From an uncultured Alphaproteobacteria bacterium (GTDB taxonomy: Bacteria > Pseudomonadota > Alphaproteobacteria > RF32 > CAG-239), in assembly GCA_944390265.1 (NCBI GenBank), contig CALXPK010000024.1, positions 11,183 through 75,182 of the forward strand: a stretch of DNA of 64,000 nt, given 5' to 3'. Below are positions 5,693-40,365 of the stretch, one piece after another; position 1 is the stretch's first letter; every line of letters starts with the position of its first letter. The notes under the pieces are model-generated. The model saw only the letters and a list, made by a program, of their open reading frames with translations. It searched no databases and was not told the DNA's origin. The position numbers were made by a program, and so were the translations under genes.

Positions 5693-7564
5693 ATGGCTGA
5701 TTTACAAAAGTTTTGCGATGAATTGCGCGCGAAGGTGTCGATTGTTGATGTGGTCGGCGCCAAGGTTAAACTCGTGCGCAAAGGGCGTGAATATCAGGCT
5801 TGTTGTCCGTTTCATAATGAAAAGACACCGTCTTTTACCGTGAATGAAAGCAAAGGTTTTTACCATTGCTTTGGGTGCGGTGCGCATGGTGATATCATCA
5901 AATTTGAGATGGAAGCCAATAATCTGTCATTTATGGAAGCCTTGGAAAAACTGGCGGATAAAGCCGGTTTGCAAGTGCCGCGGGATTCTTATGCCAAGCC
6001 GGAAGAGGTGGAACGCCGTAACTCGCTCTATGATATTATGGAGCTGGCTTGCAAGTTTTTTGAAAAATCATTGCGGATGCCGGAAGGAGCACGGGCGCTG
6101 GATTATTTATCTTACCGTGGTTTCGGTGATGATATCATCCAAAAATTTCGCTTAGGTTACGCGCCGAACAATAATGGGCTGAAGACTTATCTTTCCTCTA
6201 AAGGGGTGAAAGAAAATGAGATGCACGAGCTTGGGCTTTTGACCATCCCCGAAGATAAAACCCGTCGTCCGCATGACTTTTTCCGCGATCGTGTGATGAT
6301 TCCGATTATGGATAAACGCGGCAAGGTGATTGCCTTTGGCGGGCGTATTATGGGTGACGGCCAGCCCAAGTATCTGAACTCGCCGGAAACACCGGTTTTT
6401 AACAAACGTCGCGTGCTTTATAACCTTAACAATGCCAAAGATGCCGGATATCAGGAGAAAAAACTCATCATCTGCGAGGGGTATATGGATGTTATCGGCA
6501 TGGATAAATACGGCATTCATTATGCCGTGGCGCCCCTCGGAACGGCTTTGACCGAAGACCAAATTCAAGAGGCTTGGCGGGTGGTGGATGTGCCGACCTG
6601 TTGCTTTGACGGCGATTTGGCGGGGCGACGTGCCGCGGTGCGTTCGGTGGACCGCGTGTTGCCGATTTTGAAAGCCGGAAATTCCCTGCAATATGTTTTT
6701 TTGACCGGCGCCAAAGACCCTGATGAATTTTTGAAAACACTCGGCAGAGAGGCTTTTGATAAGGCTATATCTGAAGTTGTTCCGCTTAAAGATTTGATTT
6801 GGCAAAAAAACATCGAAGGAAGAGACGTTTCGACGCCGGAACAAAAAGCCTTGATTGAAAAAAATATCAAGGAAGAAGTGGCCAAAATCAGCGACGAAAC
6901 GGTGCGCAATTATTATATTCAAGAAATGCAAGATAAAATCTACAACGAGCTCGGCAAGGGAGCCAGCTGGCGCAAGCGTCAACAGGCGGTGCAGAGCGGG
7001 GCGCCGACTTATACCAAAGAGTTTGGGCGCAATTATCTGCAAAAATCTCGTTATGCGGCTAAAAATGACAGTGTTTCCGTGCGTCAGGCTCAGCTCGCCA
7101 CACCCAAAGTGCATTTGGACGAGCTGGTGGCAAAATATGTGGTTTCGGCTTTGGTTTTGTATCCGAATCTTGTGGACGAATATGAGGAAAAAATATCTAA
7201 TTTCAATATAAAAAATCCGCAACTTAATGCCTTACTTGAAAATATTATCTCCCTTAATGAGGATGAAAAAGTTGAGGATTTTGCCGCTATGTATGACAAA
7301 CTCAAACAGCGTGGTTTGCAAAAAGATGTTGATACGCTGTTGGAGTTTAAAATGCTTAAATTGCAGAACCCTAACGATGCTCGTATGCGCGAGAATTTGG
7401 ATTTGCGGATTTTGGAATCTCAGCTCAAACAGCTTGATGCCGAAATTAAGGAATGTTTGCGGGTGATGGAAACTTCCGACTCGCTTTCCGACGAGGTCTA
7501 TAAACGCTACGAGTCGCTCAAAAAAGAAAAAGAAAATTTGCTCGCGGCACAAGAATTTGATTGA
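5693..7564 (+). CDS. dnaG: DNA primase
   Basis: Zinc ribbon CCPFHNEKTPSFTVNESKGFYHCFGCGAHG; TOPRIM segment LIICEGYMDVIGM; 623 aa. Confidence 0.95.
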   Translation: MADLQKFCDELRAKVSIVDVVGAKVKLVRKGREYQACCPFHNEKTPSFTVNESKGFYHCFGCGAHGDIIKFEMEANNLSFMEALEKLADKAGLQVPRDSYAKPEEVERRNSLYDIMELACKFFEKSLRMPEGARALDYLSYRGFGDDIIQKFRLGYAPNNNGLKTYLSSKGVKENEMHELGLLTIPEDKTRRPHDFFRDRVMIPIMDKRGKVIAFGGRIMGDGQPKYLNSPETPVFNKRRVLYNLNNAKDAGYQEKKLIICEGYMDVIGMDKYGIHYAVAPLGTALTEDQIQEAWRVVDVPTCCFDGDLAGRRAAVRSVDRVLPILKAGNSLQYVFLTGAKDPDEFLKTLGREAFDKAISEVVPLKDLIWQKNIEGRDVSTPEQKALIEKNIKEEVAKISDETVRNYYIQEMQDKIYNELGKGASWRKRQQAVQSGAPTYTKEFGRNYLQKSRYAAKNDSVSVRQAQLATPKVHLDELVAKYVVSALVLYPNLVDEYEEKISNFNIKNPQLNALLENIISLNEDEKVEDFAAMYDKLKQRGLQKDVDTLLEFKMLKLQNPNDARMRENLDLRILESQLKQLDAEIKECLRVMETSDSLSDEVYKRYESLKKEKENLLAAQEFD

Positions 7565-7701: not shown

Positions 7702-9771
7702 ATGTCAGATATAGATAGTCCGGACCTGTATGAAGGTACTGCCAATGACACACCTTTGATTGATAATCTCGGCAGTGCCGTCAAACGCCTGATTGATAAA
7801 GGTCGCGTCAGAGGCTTTATTACGGTTGAAGAACTGAACAGAGCTTTGCCTCCCGAAAAAGAGTCTTCCGAAAATATTGAAGATATTATGACCAGTATCT
7901 CCGATATGGGAATCAGCATTATCAACGAGTCGGATGCTGATGACTTCAATGGTGAAGAAGAGGAAGATGTTGAAGATTTTGACGATGAGGATGACAGCGG
8001 CAATTTTGATGAAAGAGAACTCGGCCGCAGTGATGATCCGGTCAGAATGTATCTGAAAGAAATGGGCACGGTTGAGCTTTTGTCCCGCGAAGGTGAAATT
8101 GCCATTGCCAAACGTATTGAAGCCGGCAAAACCGTGATGATTGACGGTTTGTGCTAAAGCCCGTTGACCCTGAAAGCCATTGCCGGTTGGCGCGATGATT
8201 TGGTTGAAGGCCGTATGCAACTTCGAGATATCGTCGATTTGGAAATGATGTACGGTGATGATGCCGATGCTCTGGCTTTTGAAGAAGATGTGGCTTCTGC
8301 CGCGGATGACGACTTTGAAAAAGTGGCCGAGGAAATTGAAGAAAAAGACAGCCTCGATGATATTGACGATGATTTGACCGACGATATTGAGCTCGAAGAT
8401 GCCGAAGATGATGTCGATGAAGCTGAAGATGATGCCGATGCCGACGGGCAAGGTGATGCTTCCGGCGACGGCGATGATGATGAAAACGGATCCGGTCGAA
8501 TTTCGGCTTCGGTTTCTTCTATGGAAGAGGCTTTGATGGAGCCGGTGTTGGAAATTTTGAACAAAATCTCCAGCTATTATGATGATTTGAAAAAAATTCA
8601 AAGCCAACGCGTGGCCGCCATTATTGCCGGTAAAAACGTTGCGCCTTCGGTTGAGAAAAAATATGTTCAGGTGAAAAAAGAGCTCGTGGAGTTGATGAGC
8701 TCAATTCACCTCAATGCCGTGCGCGTGGAGCAATTGGTGGAGCAACTTAACGAAATTAACCGCCGCTTGATGGGCTTGGAAGGCAAACTCTTGCGTTATG
8801 CTCTTTCTTGCAAAATTAAACGTGAAGATTTCTTGGCTGCATACCAAAAGTCGGAACTTGATCCGAACTGGCTTGAGAAAATTTCTAAGAAAACCGACAA
8901 ACACTGGAAAAACTTTGTCGAGAAATATGGTACGGAAATTAAAGAATTGCGCGAAAATATTGCGCAAATGGCCACTGAATGCGGTTTGCCCATCAGCGAA
9001 TATCGTCGCATGGTAGACACCATTAAAAAAGGTGAACGTGAGGCCGAGCGTGCTAAAAAAGAGATGATTGAAGCCAACTTGCGTTTGGTTATCTCCATTG
9101 CCAAGAAATATACCAACCGCGGTCTGCAGTTCTTGGATTTGATTCAGGAAGGTAACATCGGTTTGATGAAGGCCGTCGATAAGTTTGAATATCGCCGTGG
9201 TTATAAGTTTTCTACCTACGCCACATGGTGGATCAGACAAGCTATTACCCGTTCGATTGCCGATCAGGCACGCACCATTCGTATTCCGGTTCATATGATT
9301 GAAACGATTAATAAATTGGTTCGCACATCACGCCAAATGTTGGCCGAAATGGGCCGTGAGCCGGTGCCTGAGGAATTGGCCAAACGCTTGTCCATGCCGC
9401 TTGAAAAAGTGCGTAAGGTTATGAAAATTGCCAAAGAGCCGGTTTCTTTGGAAGCTCCGGTCGGTGATGAAGAAGATTCTTCTTTGGGCGATTTCATTGC
9501 TGATGAAAGCGCTTTGCAGCCGTTGGATTCTGCCATCCATTCCAACTTGAAAGAAACCTGCACCCGCATTTTGTCCTCGTTGACACCGCGTGAAGAGCGC
9601 GTGTTGCGTATGCGTTTCGGTATCGGTATGAACACCGACCATACTTTGGAAGAAGTTGGTCAGCAGTTCAACGTGACGCGTGAAAGTATTCGTCAGATTG
9701 AGGCCAAGGCCTTGCGTAAGCTCAAACACCCGAGCCGGTCACGTAAGCTGCGTTCTTTCTTGGATAACTAA
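7702..9771 (+). CDS. rpoD: RNA polymerase sigma-70 RpoD; single reading frame interrupted by an in-frame TAA at 8155-8157 (codon 152)
   Basis: Region 1.1 acidic N-terminus and the IAKRIEAG...DGLC segment, then TAA, then the same frame continues [15 protein letters not shown]... through the acidic insert and regions 2-4 ([30 protein letters not shown]). Confidence 0.85.
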
Positions 9772-11619: not shown

Positions 11620-11696
11620 GAAGAGTCCATCTGGGCCCACCATAAAAAAATCCCCTCCCAAAGCGGAGGGGATTTTTTTTATGGTGAGAAGAAAGA
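11620..11696 (+). repeat. Direct repeat of the tRNA 3' end (gagtccatctgggcccacca) plus terminator plus atggtgagaagaaagaca, a second copy of 11362..11437; att-like duplication
   Basis: About 76-bp near-identical direct repeat bracketing about 182 bp that includes an inverted partial T-arm copy (11441-11460, cgaaccaacgag). Confidence 0.7.
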
Positions 11697-11781
11697 CATT
11701 TTTTTTATGGTGAGAAGAAAGACATTTTTTTTATGGTGAGAAGAAAGACATTTTTTTTATGATGAGAAGAAAGATATTTTT
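11681..11781. repeat. Tandem repeat, 26-bp unit atggtgagaagaaagacatttttttt, 4 copies (last one degenerate)
   Basis: Read directly from the sequence; no unique spacers between units. Confidence 0.8.
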
Positions 11782-11865
11782 GGCGTGAGGGAAAAGATAT
11801 GATTGACAGCAGAACAAAAATGAATTTTACTCATCTGCAGATTTTATTTATGCGGTGGAGATAAT

Positions 11866-13026
11866 ATGAAAAAAATATTTTTGGCTTTGTTTTTCTTATT
11901 GTGCTCGGCAAACGCTGCCTCAGCCATGCAGATTTTTATTTTCACTTTGAACTCAAAACATATCACTCTGGAAGTTGAGCCTACGGATAAAGTGGAAGAT
12001 ATTAAACTGAAAATTTTGGATAAAGAAGGGGTGCCGGTCGATCAACAGCAATTAACTTTTGACGGCAAGGTGTTGAAAGATGGCTATACTTTGCAAGATT
12101 ATAGCATTCAAAAAGATTTTACTCTGAATTTGGTTTTGAAAAGTGAACTTAATATTGAGGCTTATCAGCTCAACTTTAATCCGGTTAATGTTGTCAGACA
12201 GAATACAGATATGTTGTTGAATACCATATCTTCTCGCACCACCGGCGGTATTCAGGCCTCAGCGGGCGGGGAGCAGATAAACCCCAAGGATAATTCATCT
12301 CTTTGGGTGAACAGCTTGACCGGACATTCCGAATATGCGGGAACAAATAGTAATGGTTTGGTCATGGGTTTTGAGAAAAAAACTTCGGCTTTTAAATATG
12401 GTTTGGGATATGGTTATTTGGAAAATGATATTGACGGCTTAAACTATGGTGCAGAAGCCAAAACACATTCCGGTTTTGTTTATGGTGAATATAAGCCTTC
12501 TTCTTGGTATGCTCATGCCATGCTGACCTATTCTCATTCGCGGTTTGAGGAAAATGATTTGAGCAAATATAATTTTCAGGCCGTCAGTTCTCAGATTATG
12601 AGCGGATATGATTTTGGCAATATAACGCCGGAAGCCGGTTTTAGATATATGCATATTTGGAATGATGATTATAGAGATGCAAAAAATGTTTATCTGTTTG
12701 AAAATGACGAAAATTTTTTGACGGGAATTGTCAGTGCCAAAGCGGACAAAGAGATAAAACTTGATAATGGATATCTCCTTGTGCCGCAGATTAAGGTTTC
12801 TGCCTTGTATGACTTGATGCAGGCAAATACTGATACGGGAGTTTTGATTTATGGGAATTATTATCAAATCAATACCGACAAAATTTCAAAATATGGTACG
12901 GAAATCAACCTCGGCGTTGAGCTGGCCAAGCAGAATCTTTGGTCCGCATATCTGGGTTATTACGGCCAGTTGAGAAATAATTATAATATGCATTCTGCGG
13001 TTTTGAATTTTCAATATGATTTTTAA
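11866..13026 (+). CDS. Autotransporter whose passenger is a eukaryote-like ubiquitin domain (signal peptide + Ubl + linker + C-terminal autotransporter beta-barrel)
   Basis: Signal peptide [20 protein letters not shown]; residues 21-92 [72 protein letters not shown], about 46/72 identical to ubiquitin by hand alignment; C-terminal about 250 aa with [13 protein letters not shown]... and terminal NFQYDF typical of autotransporter beta-domains. Confidence 0.85.
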
Positions 13027-17940: not shown

Positions 17941-18636
17941 TTGGAAAAGTTGATGAAAAAAATTTTTGTTGAGACAGATTTTGCAAAATTGGATGTTGCT
18001 CGAAAACAACGAACCGGTTTTCCTGAGACGGTTTTTTGTTTGGGAAAGAGTAAAGAGCAAGTTGCTGATATCTTGCAGAATTTTGCATCGGTCGGGCAAA
18101 ATGTTTTGGGAACAAAATGTTCTCCTGAACAATTTGATTTTGCTTTGAAAAAAGGCTTGCCGGTTAAATATGATTCTTTATCACGAGTGATAAGCCTCGG
18201 GCAAAAAGAGACTAATCCTTTTAGGGGAAACATTGCCGTGTGCTGTGCAGGTACATCTGATTTGCCGATTTTGGAAGAAGCTGCTCAAGTTGCCGAATTT
18301 TTTGGAGCTGTTGTTGAAAGGTATGTTGATATCGGTGTTGCCGGAATCCAGCGTTTGTTTGCACAAATTGATAATATTCAAAAGGCTGACGTTGTTATTG
18401 CCGTGGCCGGAATGGAAGGGGCTTTGGCCAGCGTGTTGGCCGGTTTGGTCAGAACTCCGGTGATTGCCGTTCCGACATCGGTGGGATATGGCGCCTCTTT
18501 TCATGGTTTGGCGGCCATGCTTGCCATGCTTAATTCATGTGCCGAAGGCGTGTCGGTTGTTAATATTGATAATGGGTTTGGCGCTGCGGTTCAGGCTTGT
18601 CGAATCTTAGCACTAAAAGGAAGGATGAATGACTAA
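17941..18636 (+). CDS. larB: LarB, nickel-pincer nucleotide biosynthesis carboxylase/hydrolase (PurE-like)
   Basis: AVAGMEGALASVLAGLVRTPVIAVPTSVGYGASFHGLAAMLAMLNSCAEGVSVVNIDNGFGAA matches the LarB/PurE-like core. Confidence 0.85.
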   Translation: MEKLMKKIFVETDFAKLDVARKQRTGFPETVFCLGKSKEQVADILQNFASVGQNVLGTKCSPEQFDFALKKGLPVKYDSLSRVISLGQKETNPFRGNIAVCCAGTSDLPILEEAAQVAEFFGAVVERYVDIGVAGIQRLFAQIDNIQKADVVIAVAGMEGALASVLAGLVRTPVIAVPTSVGYGASFHGLAAMLAMLNSCAEGVSVVNIDNGFGAAVQACRILALKGRMND

Positions 18637-19855
18637 ATATTTATATTTTGACGGGTCTTGCGGTATTGCAGGAGATATGACAGTGGCGGCTCTGTTGGAT
18701 TTGGGTGCTCGTCGTGAAAAGTTGCAACAGGTTTTGGAAAGCCTAAAGTTGGATGGTGTGCATTATCATATTTCTCAAAAGTCTTCTTATAGTATTTTCG
18801 GGTGCGATTTTGATGTCCATCTTCTGCAGAAAACAGATTCTCATGAAGAAGAATATCTTATGAATGCACATCATCATGAACATCGTCATCATGAACATCG
18901 TCATTTGTCTGATGTGTATGAAATTATTGACCGTGGAAAAATGAGCGAAAGGGCACGCCTTTTGGCTAAAAAAATATTTGAAATAGTGGCACAGGCCGAA
19001 GCTAAAGCTCATGGCGTGAAGGTTGAAGATGTGCATTTTCATGAAGTGGGGGCTTTAGATTCAATTGTTGATATTGTTTCGGTTGCCGTGTTGATTGATG
19101 ATTTGGGTATTGAAAACTGTATTGTTACCGGTTTAAATGAAGGGCATGGCTTTGTTACTTGTCAGCATGGAAGTCTGCCGGTTCCGGTTCCTGCTGTTTT
19201 GAATATTGCCGAAAAATATGGCTTGATTTTGCGGCCGACCTCGGTTGAAGGTGAGATGGTGACACCTACCGGTATTGCCGTTGTTGCCGCTTTGAAAACA
19301 GATGCAAAACTTCCTCCTGCTTATAAAATTTTGAAGTCTGGTGTCGGGTTGGGAAAAAGAGATTTTGGTCGAGCTAATTTTTTGCGAGTTCAAATTATTG
19401 AAGATGTGGCTGACGAGAAACAAATTTTTGTAATTGAGAGTAATATTGATTATACCAGTGCCTAAGAATTGGGCTTTGCTCAAGAAAAACTGTTTGCTGC
19501 AAGTGCTTTGAATGTGCAGTTTGATCAAAAAAAAAAAAAAAAATGCCGACCGGCTTATCTGTTACGAATCATTTGCTCGGCTGATAAAGTTTCTGCTTTG
19601 GAAAAAGTTCTTTTTGAAAATACCTCGTCTATCGGTTGTCGGAAATATGTCGTGGAAAGAACAGTTATGACGCGTGAAAATATTTTAGTGCAGCTTGATT
19701 ACGGTCAAGTTAGCGTAAAAAAGTGTTGCTATTTGGATTTGGTGCGTTTTTATCCAGAATTTGAAAGTGTTAGACAATTGGCTTTGCAAACAGGTTTGTC
19801 TTTTCGAAAAATTTTTGATGATGCAAAATTGAAAGCTGAAGAAAACAAATGTTAG
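18629..19855 (+). CDS. larC: LarC nickel insertase (DUF111): the N- and C-terminal parts are in the same frame, separated by a single TAA at 19463-19465; an A17 tract lies at 19527-19543
   Basis: N-terminal part MTKYLYFDGSCGIAGDM... with His-rich HHHEHRHHEHRH; C-terminal part ...GCRKYVVERTVMTRENILVQLDYGQVSVKK... typical of the LarC C-terminal domain; both parts in frame 2. Confidence 0.75.
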
Positions 19856-26948: not shown

Positions 26949-28423
26949 TCAGATTTTGACAATGCCATGGGCAAAGGCATAAATGGCCCAAAGTGAAAGA
27001 ATAATAAAGATGGTTACAGCGGCATATTCACGAGCCGTAAAGAGCTTCTCATTTGGCTCAGACTCTTTTCTGGCCCAGATATAAACCGGAATACCCAAGG
27101 TGACAATCACAACCGCCATCAGCAAATAATTTAAGCCGGCGGCATAAATCAGCCAAAGAGCATAGATTGAGCCGAAAACCGAGGTAAACAAAGCCGAAGA
27201 GCGTTTGACCGGTAAGCCGCTCGGATATTCGCCGTCTTCACAAAGTTTCCATAAATAAGCGCAGGAGGCAAAATAGGCCGGCAATACCATGACGCTGGTG
27301 ATGCTCAACATGGTGTTCCAGGCGTTGTTGGAGAAATAGACCAACAAGATGAAAATTTGCATCATGGCTGAGGTGACCCAAAGTGAAACGCTCGGTGAAC
27401 CGGCTTCATTCTCTTTGGTGAAGGCTTTGGGAAAAGTACCGTTTTCAGCAGCAGCTTGCGGAATTTGTGCGGTGACGATTGTCCAGGCCAGCCAGCTGGT
27501 CAACACCGAAAGAACCAAGCCGATGTTCATAATCCAAGCGCCCCAAGGTCCGACAACTTTTTCCAAAATGCCGGCGGTGGACGGAGGTGGAACAGCAGCG
27601 AGTTCGGGTTGTGACATCAATCCATAAGGCAGTAATGAGAGCAACAGATAAATGACTAAGCAACCGATGAAGCCCAAAAACGTTGCTTTGCCGATTTCTT
27701 GAACATTTTTGGCGCGGTTAGACATGACAACGGCACCTTCAATACCAATAAATGCCCACAAGGTGACCAACATGGTCGATTTGATTTGGGTTTCCAAACC
27801 GCCGAGTTTGGCTTTGGTTTCAATGGCTTCGCCCCAGAAGTCAAAGTCAAAATGAGCAAATTTGAACACAAACAGCATTATCAAAATGAACAAAACCAAC
27901 GGGACAACCTTAACAACCGTGCCGATGGTGTTGATGACGGAGGCTTGTTTGATGCCTTTCAAGACCAAAAAGTTGAAGCCCCAAATGATGATTGAGCCCC
28001 GATGATGGAGGCGAGGTTGTTGCCGCCGGCAAAGTAGGGCGGAAAGAAGTAGTTCAACGCATCCATCGTGATGACGGCATAACCGACATTGCCGCAAACC
28101 TGACAAAGCCAATAGGACCAGCCGATGGTGAATCCGGCAAAGGGGCCGAAACCTTCACGGCTGTACATATAAATACCGGTGGTTAAATCCGGCTTGGCCA
28201 TGGACAAGATGCTGAAGGTGTTGGCAATGAAATAGATACCGATACCGGTGATGACCCAAGCCAGCAAAACGGCTCCGGCAGAAGCATGCGAGGCCATGTT
28301 TTGCGGCAAGGAATAAATGCCGCCGCCAATCATGGAGCTGACAACAATCGCGGCTAAGGCCAGAACACCCAAGCCGTTGGGGTTGTTTTTCAGCGGTGCG
28401 GCAGAAGTTTTTTTATCAGCCAT
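26949..28423 (-). pseudogene. APC-family basic amino acid antiporter (arginine:agmatine or arginine:ornithine, AaxC/ArcD-like) disrupted by a -1 frameshift at a C4 (minus-strand G4) tract 27996-27999
   Basis: N-part [11 protein letters not shown]...GGNNLASII in one frame, C-part [19 protein letters not shown]... in another; adding one G gives a contiguous ...[19 protein letters not shown]. Confidence 0.8.
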
Positions 28424-32226: not shown

Positions 32227-33351
<1,125 letters not shown>

Positions 33352-39343: not shown

Positions 39344-39645
39344 GTGTATAATGGAAATCAGAAAAGATTATGCGTCGGCTCGAAAAATTCATGTACTTCT
39401 ATGTACATTAGGATTTTTCTCGCTCCTAAAATCACTCTATCTTCCCAATTCCGACTAGGCTTTGTTACGAAAGCTATCGCATTCTGCCAAAGCCAAGTCT
39501 CATTGCGTCTCCTTAAAAAAAGCACATTTAGGTGCTTTTTTTTGCGGCCGTCTCCGAACTTTTATACACTCTCTCATATTTTTGCTGGTTTCTTATTATT
39601 ACGCTCATAAAAAAGAAATTTGTGAAAGTTCGTATAATGGAAAGC
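39344..39645. repeat. Intergenic repeat element copy B (core 39446..39610) flanked by direct repeats gtataatggaaa at 39346-39357 and 39634-39645
   Basis: Core aligns to 223..372, including the aagcacattta(a)ggtgctt hairpin; the flanking repeats differ from those of copy A. Confidence 0.6.
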
Positions 39646-39801
39646 TGTTGGTTCATTTTAGTTTGGTGCAAATCCATGTTGATGTAATAAGAGCCTTGTT
39701 TGGGCTCTTTTTTTGTGCTATAATCATCTTGTTAAAAAAATTATTAAGAGGCTATTATTCACGCGGTATTTGCCTCATACTGCACTTAAAATATTTTATT
39801 T

Positions 39802-40008
39802 ATGGGATGGTTAGAGTTAATCATTGCCGTGATACTTTTTATTATCCTTGCCGCTATTTTTATTAAAATAATAGCTATTGCTGTTATCTTAATATTCGCC
39901 GCCGCAGTTTGCTGGCTGCTTTGGTGGGGAATCTCATCATTGTTTGCCTATATCGGCTGGTGGGTCATTTTGGTGATTGTAATTGTTATAATAATATTAA
40001 AAAAATAG
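39802..40008 (+). CDS. Putative small hydrophobic membrane peptide (68 aa)
   Basis: Two predicted TM helices; sits between the repeat element and a terminated downstream gene. Confidence 0.3.
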   Translation: MGWLELIIAVILFIILAAIFIKIIAIAVILIFAAAVCWLLWWGISSLFAYIGWWVILVIVIVIIILKK

Positions 40009-40011
40009 CGT

Positions 40012-40365
40012 ATGGAACTAATAATTAGTATCATCACAGTCATACTTTGCTTGGTATACTGTATCTTTATGCTTGCTTTCTATCTTCAACTCATTGGAGT
40101 TGTTCTTGGGGCAACAAAAGGCAAATATCTGTGGATTCCGGCAATCATCGGTTTGTCAATTTATGCCATTCTGATGTGCTCTGAAGATTCTTGGATGTGG
40201 GTTTTCCCTAAAACTCTGGGATTTATCCTTGATTGGGGCGGCGGTTTATTCTGTATGGTCGCCGGAATTTATTTGACCTGGAAAACTTTCACCAGTTGGA
40301 AGTTTTTCTTAGGTATGACAGGCGTAAGCGCGGTTATCTTCTTGATTGCATTTATGCTTGGCTAA
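40012..40365 (+). CDS. Putative membrane protein (117 aa, about 4 TM)
   Basis: Strong intrinsic terminator immediately downstream. Confidence 0.4.
   Translation: MELIISIITVILCLVYCIFMLAFYLQLIGVVLGATKGKYLWIPAIIGLSIYAILMCSEDSWMWVFPKTLGFILDWGGGLFCMVAGIYLTWKTFTSWKFFLGMTGVSAVIFLIAFMLG

Follow-up and report, generated by a model that had tools for sequence, protein, structure and literature searches.

An in-frame TAA in the primary sigma factor gene rpoD of an uncultured alphaproteobacterium as a probable consensus error of a deposited contig

Amber mutants of rpoD, the gene for the primary sigma factor, are conditional-lethal in Escherichia coli; they need a suppressor tRNA for growth and are known as laboratory mutants that are kept in suppressor strains. 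In Lactobacillus plantarum, the LarC protein is produced from two open reading frames (ORFs), larC1 and larC2, by programmed frameshifting. Stop codons have been reassigned in several bacterial groups, UGA to tryptophan in Mycoplasma and UGA to glycine in Gracilibacteria/SR1, and such reassigned codons recur over many genes and do not serve as terminators. Premature stops and frameshifts are also documented as the product of residual consensus errors, which fragment genes in draft assemblies; Kastor (PMC12007338) and Polypolish (PMC8812927) handle gene-fragmenting errors of this kind, mainly homopolymer indels in long-read assemblies.

The DNA considered here (the window) is a 64-kb stretch from an uncultured alphaproteobacterium of gut or rumen, in which rpoD (7702..9771, + strand) is interrupted by an in-frame TAA at 8155-8157. 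The locus resembles the consensus errors of draft assemblies and MAGs in that a premature stop in a conserved gene is present in one assembly only, close relatives have the gene intact, and further local errors are found on the same contig; unlike the homopolymer indels that mainly concern the Kastor and Polypolish papers, the lesions in the window are A/T-biased substitutions and one run overwritten by A. With the amber mutants of E. coli the locus shares a nonsense codon in the single essential primary sigma gene, such that survival would need suppression, but the stop in the window is ochre (TAA), the window contains no suppressor, and the mutation itself probably does not exist. As with larC1 and larC2 of L. 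plantarum, LarC is encoded in the window by two consecutive ORFs; in this case, however, the break is an in-frame TAA set among 16 private substitutions rather than a conserved recoding site. An in-frame stop at a conserved sense position of an essential gene is also what stop reassignment would give, whereas TAA in the window ends 37 of 53 genes and is found in frame just twice, each time as a private change.

The TAA in rpoD is in frame with the ATG at 7702 and lies past region 1.2, where the window reads GGT TTG TGC TAA AGC CCG TTG ACC. The N-terminal part of the gene (7702..8154, + strand) consists of 151 codons for sigma-70 regions 1.1 and 1.2 (Pfam Sigma70_r1_1, E 6.5e-20; Sigma70_r1_2, E 9.7e-14) and is colinear with residues 1-151 of the full-length RpoD proteins P0001-P0007. 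The remainder (8158..9771, + strand) consists of 537 codons and a normal TAA terminator; it encodes the non-conserved region and regions 2, 3, and 4 (Pfam Sigma70_ner, r2, r3, and r4) and ends at the same residue as in relatives. The order of Pfam domains across both ORFs is the correct one for RpoD, a group 1 sigma-70 factor, and when the stop is replaced by Glu the resulting 689-aa product is colinear with the RpoD of a relative (P0001, full length, 689 aa) over 100% of its length at 99% identity, which rules out chance juxtaposition of two ORFs. The gene for DnaG (5693..7564) is directly upstream of rpoD, and the same gene order is found in the related contigs L081, L082, L083, and L144. 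The domains, the colinearity with RpoD, and the dnaG context together identify the interrupted gene as that for the primary sigma factor, although the uninterrupted frame of a group 1 sigma-70 gene is broken here by the TAA. Because P0001 has GAA (Glu) at codon 152, the lesion amounts to one G>T change at 8155. The initial annotation, which had placed this TAA in frame within rpoD and read it as a one-nucleotide change from GAA, is supported in the former claim by sequence, Pfam, and full-length alignment, and in the latter by the GAA of the relatives.

GAA is present at codon 152 in every relative compared. The same-species contigs L081 (98.8% identical in nucleotides) and L144 (98.9%) contain an uninterrupted rpoD of 689 aa with GAA at this codon, and GAA is also found there in the sister species L082 and L083. 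A scan of public metagenomes, with the flanking 23-mer as query and its two variable bases left open, gives GAA in 60 of 60 matching contigs; tblastn against alphaproteobacterial loci gives Glu at residue 152 in 144 of 144. When about 15 billion predicted proteins were queried for exact matches, the 151-aa and 535-aa RpoD fragments were each found in one copy, both on the 79,637-bp NCBI contig from which the window comes, together with the other proteins of the window. The TAA in rpoD is private to one deposited record, and no other assembly has TAA at that position. Replacement of N or IUPAC codes during preprocessing was considered as a source of the lesions and rejected, since the proteins of the NCBI record already show both the lysine run and the split. 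The same 90% cluster as the RpoD C-terminal fragment includes a 446-aa protein from another assembly (P0123, on a JGI contig of 2,050 bp), in which an unrelated Cys-rich, membrane-protein-like N-terminus is joined to the C-terminal half of RpoD at a shared AILAGKS stretch; P0123 probably stems from chimeric misassembly of a public metagenome.

Differences in rpoD were polarised with the two same-species contigs and the two sister species, which places four derived changes on the window's own branch, one synonymous transition (T>C at 9600) and three first-position transversions. The transversions are G>T at 8155 (E152*), A>T at 8164, nine bases farther on (ATG>TTG at 8164..8166, M155L), and C>A at 9685 (CGT>AGT at 9685..9687, R662S), all on the + strand. 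R662 lies in region 4, in the TRERIRQIE stretch, where Arg is invariant (119 of 119 loci); we take it to be equivalent to R586 of E. coli, in the -35 recognition helix. Residue 155 varies among relatives (M72/L64/I8), such that M155L is conservative in itself; the same change, however, turns the earliest codon at which translation could restart past the stop from ATG into the weaker TTG and so does not appear compensatory. Of the remaining 14 differences between this rpoD and that of L081, 12 are synonymous and two are replacements in variable regions. Given that three of the four private changes are first-position transversions in a highly constrained gene, they look unfiltered by selection, as mutations or errors before the action of selection would.

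A second lesion on the same contig provides a much denser pattern. The larC gene (18629..19855, + strand), which encodes a nickel insertion protein, is split by an in-frame TAA at 19463-19465 into two ORFs that correspond to positions 1-254 and 260-374 of Pfam Ni_insertion; in same-species relatives larC is a single ORF of 403-408 aa and otherwise identical. Alignment to two of these relatives, L146 (99.0% nucleotide identity over 17 kb) and L147 (99.3% over 14 kb), delimits an artefact-like cluster at 19451..19543 (+ strand). Within 87 bp (19451-19537) the window has 16 private substitutions, which become denser from left to right up to a run of 17 A (A17, 19527-19543), the only A run of at least nine in the window. 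Ten bases of a 13-base stretch, at 19527-19537, are overwritten by A to produce this run, which stands in place of CCTTGTTATATG... one base for another, so that the length is unchanged; beyond it the sequence is identical to that of the relatives. The cluster contains a second GAA>TAA change, at 19463, and shares the change types G>T, T>A, and C>A with rpoD. Such a cluster is what a degraded read or stretch of consensus leaves behind once it has been taken into the assembly, and no mutational process explains the pattern.

Two of the larC errors, G19451 and T19454, fall inside a GATTC site (GANTC, 19451-19455), the CcrM motif and expected target of a CcrM-like methylase encoded at 32254..33351; this overlap may hint at modification-related base-calling errors, but a methylation motif as cause of the errors was dropped because the rpoD sites are not in GANTC. 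Elsewhere in larC, a His-rich stretch (18871-18885) has a 15-bp in-frame length polymorphism (HHEHRHHEHR versus HHEHR), with the long form in the window and L146 and the short form in L147 and P0128.

TAA terminates 37 of the 53 Pfam-supported genes of the window, including rpoD itself (9769-9771, at the end position of the relatives), and the only in-frame TAAs in the window are those of rpoD and larC, both private to this record and both GAA in relatives. Because TAA is in ordinary use as a terminator, its reassignment is excluded, as the initial annotation had also concluded.

The TAA in rpoD is very probably a consensus error, introduced in base-calling, assembly, or polishing, of the deposited MAG contig. 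This reading draws together the restriction of the TAA to one record, the GAA of the relatives, the larC artefact on the same contig, and the unfiltered appearance of the private changes; the variant is private to a single record in the face of agreeing assemblies, and a further non-biological pattern is present on the contig. The actual rpoD would then almost certainly have GAA (Glu) at codon 152 and encode an ordinary, uninterrupted primary sigma factor of 689 aa; M155L and R662S would probably be errors of the same kind, and the rpoD changes would share their origin with the larC cluster. Against an error stands the form of the rpoD lesion, which consists of only two changes 9 nt apart and one 1.5 kb away and is much less dramatic than that of larC. 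In addition, coverage over a contig of 79.6 kb ought to be reasonable, enough for random errors to be outvoted, and an error here would thus need some systematic or local source; nor does the window look like the usual product of noisy long reads, as its homopolymer frameshifts are few.

A real stop would mean that the bacterium lives with a nonsense codon in the sole gene for its primary sigma factor, which would demand an unusual rescue by suppression, restart, or a split sigma factor. The nonsense mutation could be recent and private to the strain, either in a defective or minority lineage or rescued from elsewhere in the genome, for example by an ochre suppressor tRNA; the base is already in the deposited record, where the proteins of the NCBI contig show the split, three of the four private rpoD changes are non-synonymous, as very young unpurged mutations would be, and G>T and C>A fit mutagenesis of the oxidative-damage type. 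A mutation of this kind is nevertheless unlikely: rpoD encodes the single primary sigma factor, and the stop removes every core- and promoter-binding region; the tRNA genes in the 64-kb window are those for tRNA-Met (two genes) and tRNA-Val, with no UUA anticodon among them; an efficient ochre suppressor would be costly where TAA ends most genes; the larC cluster in the same record is beyond any mutational process; and the allele was seen in no other assembly. The pairing of a nonsense change with a damaging missense change (R662S) is also what relaxed constraint would give, in which case this copy would be a decaying pseudogene and an intact second primary sigma gene would lie elsewhere in the genome. 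That possibility is very improbable, given that the conserved dnaG-rpoD context is common to all relatives, that no second sigma-70 gene is found in the 64-kb window while the close relatives examined keep an intact copy at this locus, and that the gene is 99% identical to intact orthologues, with 12 of the 14 non-private differences from L081 being synonymous; identity and synonymous share together point to strong purifying selection on rpoD until the very tip of the branch. A search of the window for a donor sequence for gene conversion or misassembly gave no other copy of the mutated 19-mer (allowing up to 3 mismatches).

The stop falls where two domains meet, with region 1.2 ending before it and the non-conserved region beginning after it, and a TTG lies 6 nt downstream; both would suit programmed recoding or a split sigma factor, with either readthrough of the stop or restart at TTG 8164. 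In a related reading a living strain does have the TAA and would obtain its sigma-70 by rare readthrough or from two polypeptides that reassemble on RNA polymerase, in the latter case the 151-aa fragment of regions 1.1-1.2 and a 535-aa fragment from TTG 8164, which would make it a naturally split primary sigma factor. Both readings are very improbable, the first slightly more so. TTG 8164 has no Shine-Dalgarno sequence before it and is itself the product of the private change that replaced ATG with a weaker start. A later ATG, at 8215, has a weak GAAGG upstream, but its product would lose still more of the protein, and the 518-aa and 508-aa restart variants are absent from the collection of about 15 billion proteins. 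No stimulatory RNA structure was found past the stop, as the segment 8140-8260 folds no better than its shuffles (-27.4 kcal/mol, against -30.1 on average for the shuffles; z = +0.76). Termination at TAA is the norm here, and any product restarted past the stop would be missing regions 1.1 and 1.2 while still carrying R662S, which would damage the product in any event. Stop conservation, RNA structure, in-window tRNAs, and restart codons thus give no positive evidence of readthrough or re-initiation; and since even contigs of the same species lack the stop, programmed recoding at this site is to be regarded, from the sequences compared, as excluded.

The initial annotation had offered a sequencing or assembly error, a second intact rpoD, or a true nonsense codon as options and had leaned towards the last, in a decaying genome that tolerates the stop by readthrough or re-initiation, with the larC TAA, an antiporter frameshift, and an lpxD fragment as support. 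Its error option is the one favoured by the evidence, and the lean towards decay is not sustained. The window holds about 55 intact genes and three broken ones (rpoD, larC, and an amino-acid permease gene). In a tally over the 18.6 kb of the window that is covered by two same-species contigs, private changes include 38 synonymous transitions and 20 non-synonymous transversions, 14 of which are in the rpoD and larC spots; outside these spots, synonymous transitions make up most private changes and divergence is normal. Contigs around fliE (852-3,216 bp) show ordinary polymorphism only. With some 55 genes intact and mostly synonymous transitions elsewhere, the window does not appear to be that of a decaying genome, as it has neither the many lesions nor the relaxed constraint of one. 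The rpoD stop is not conserved, and the larC TAA, which is indeed present in the sequence, loses its value as a sign of decay because it lies within the artefact cluster and LarC is intact in relatives. The frameshift ascribed to an antiporter is likewise present, in the amino-acid permease gene (27998..27999, - strand), where one G is missing relative to L146 (GAGCCGCCG in L146, GAGCCCCG in the window) and Pfam AA_permease_2 is split between the ORFs 27959..28423 and 26949..28112; this frameshift could be real or an error. The lpxD fragment was not found among the ORFs scanned, and lpxA, lpxI, and lpxB, at 59.3-62.2 kb, are intact.

If the lesions are consensus errors, as is very probable for rpoD, local errors of this contig create false pseudogenes of rpoD, larC, and possibly the permease gene, and signals of decay or recoding from the contig are not to be trusted without reads. 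Comparison with same-species contigs, together with a count of private non-synonymous changes, provides a cheap means to recognize such cases.

Several other features of the window were recorded. Relative to the sister species L082, the region 11.8-29.2 kb contains about 17 kb of extra genes between a DUF1847 region and a gene for a META-domain protein, including genes for polysaccharide biosynthesis, larB/larC/larE, and glycosyltransferases, and within it an amino-acid permease gene adjoins that of a pyruvoyl-dependent arginine decarboxylase; the region is a strain- or species-variable island. At 11866-13026 (+ strand) is a gene, conserved in L146, whose 386-aa product has at its N-terminus what appears to be a signal-like hydrophobic segment, a strong match to the Pfam ubiquitin family (residues 23-92, E 8e-21), and a long C-terminal part with a final QYDF, as in outer-membrane beta-barrels; a ubiquitin-like protein that is secreted or exposed at the surface, as these features would suggest, is unusual in a gut alphaproteobacterium. 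An intergenic tandem repeat at 11690-11790, with a unit of about 25 bp (ttttttatggtgagaagaaagaca), is present in the window in a higher copy number than in L146, a case of copy-number variation within the species.

The segment 49971-52896 contains a tRNA-Met gene and, after it, genes with domains like those of phage tail fibres (Gp53-like_C, DUF4376, and DUF1353); it may be a prophage remnant or a tailocin-like cluster that integrated beside the tRNA. Synteny with the same-species contigs L148, L149, and L151 breaks just past fliE, from 39445 onward; the window has two small hypothetical genes at 39462-40365 that these contigs lack at that position, and a small intergenic cluster of differences from the same three contigs is found at 39358-39365.
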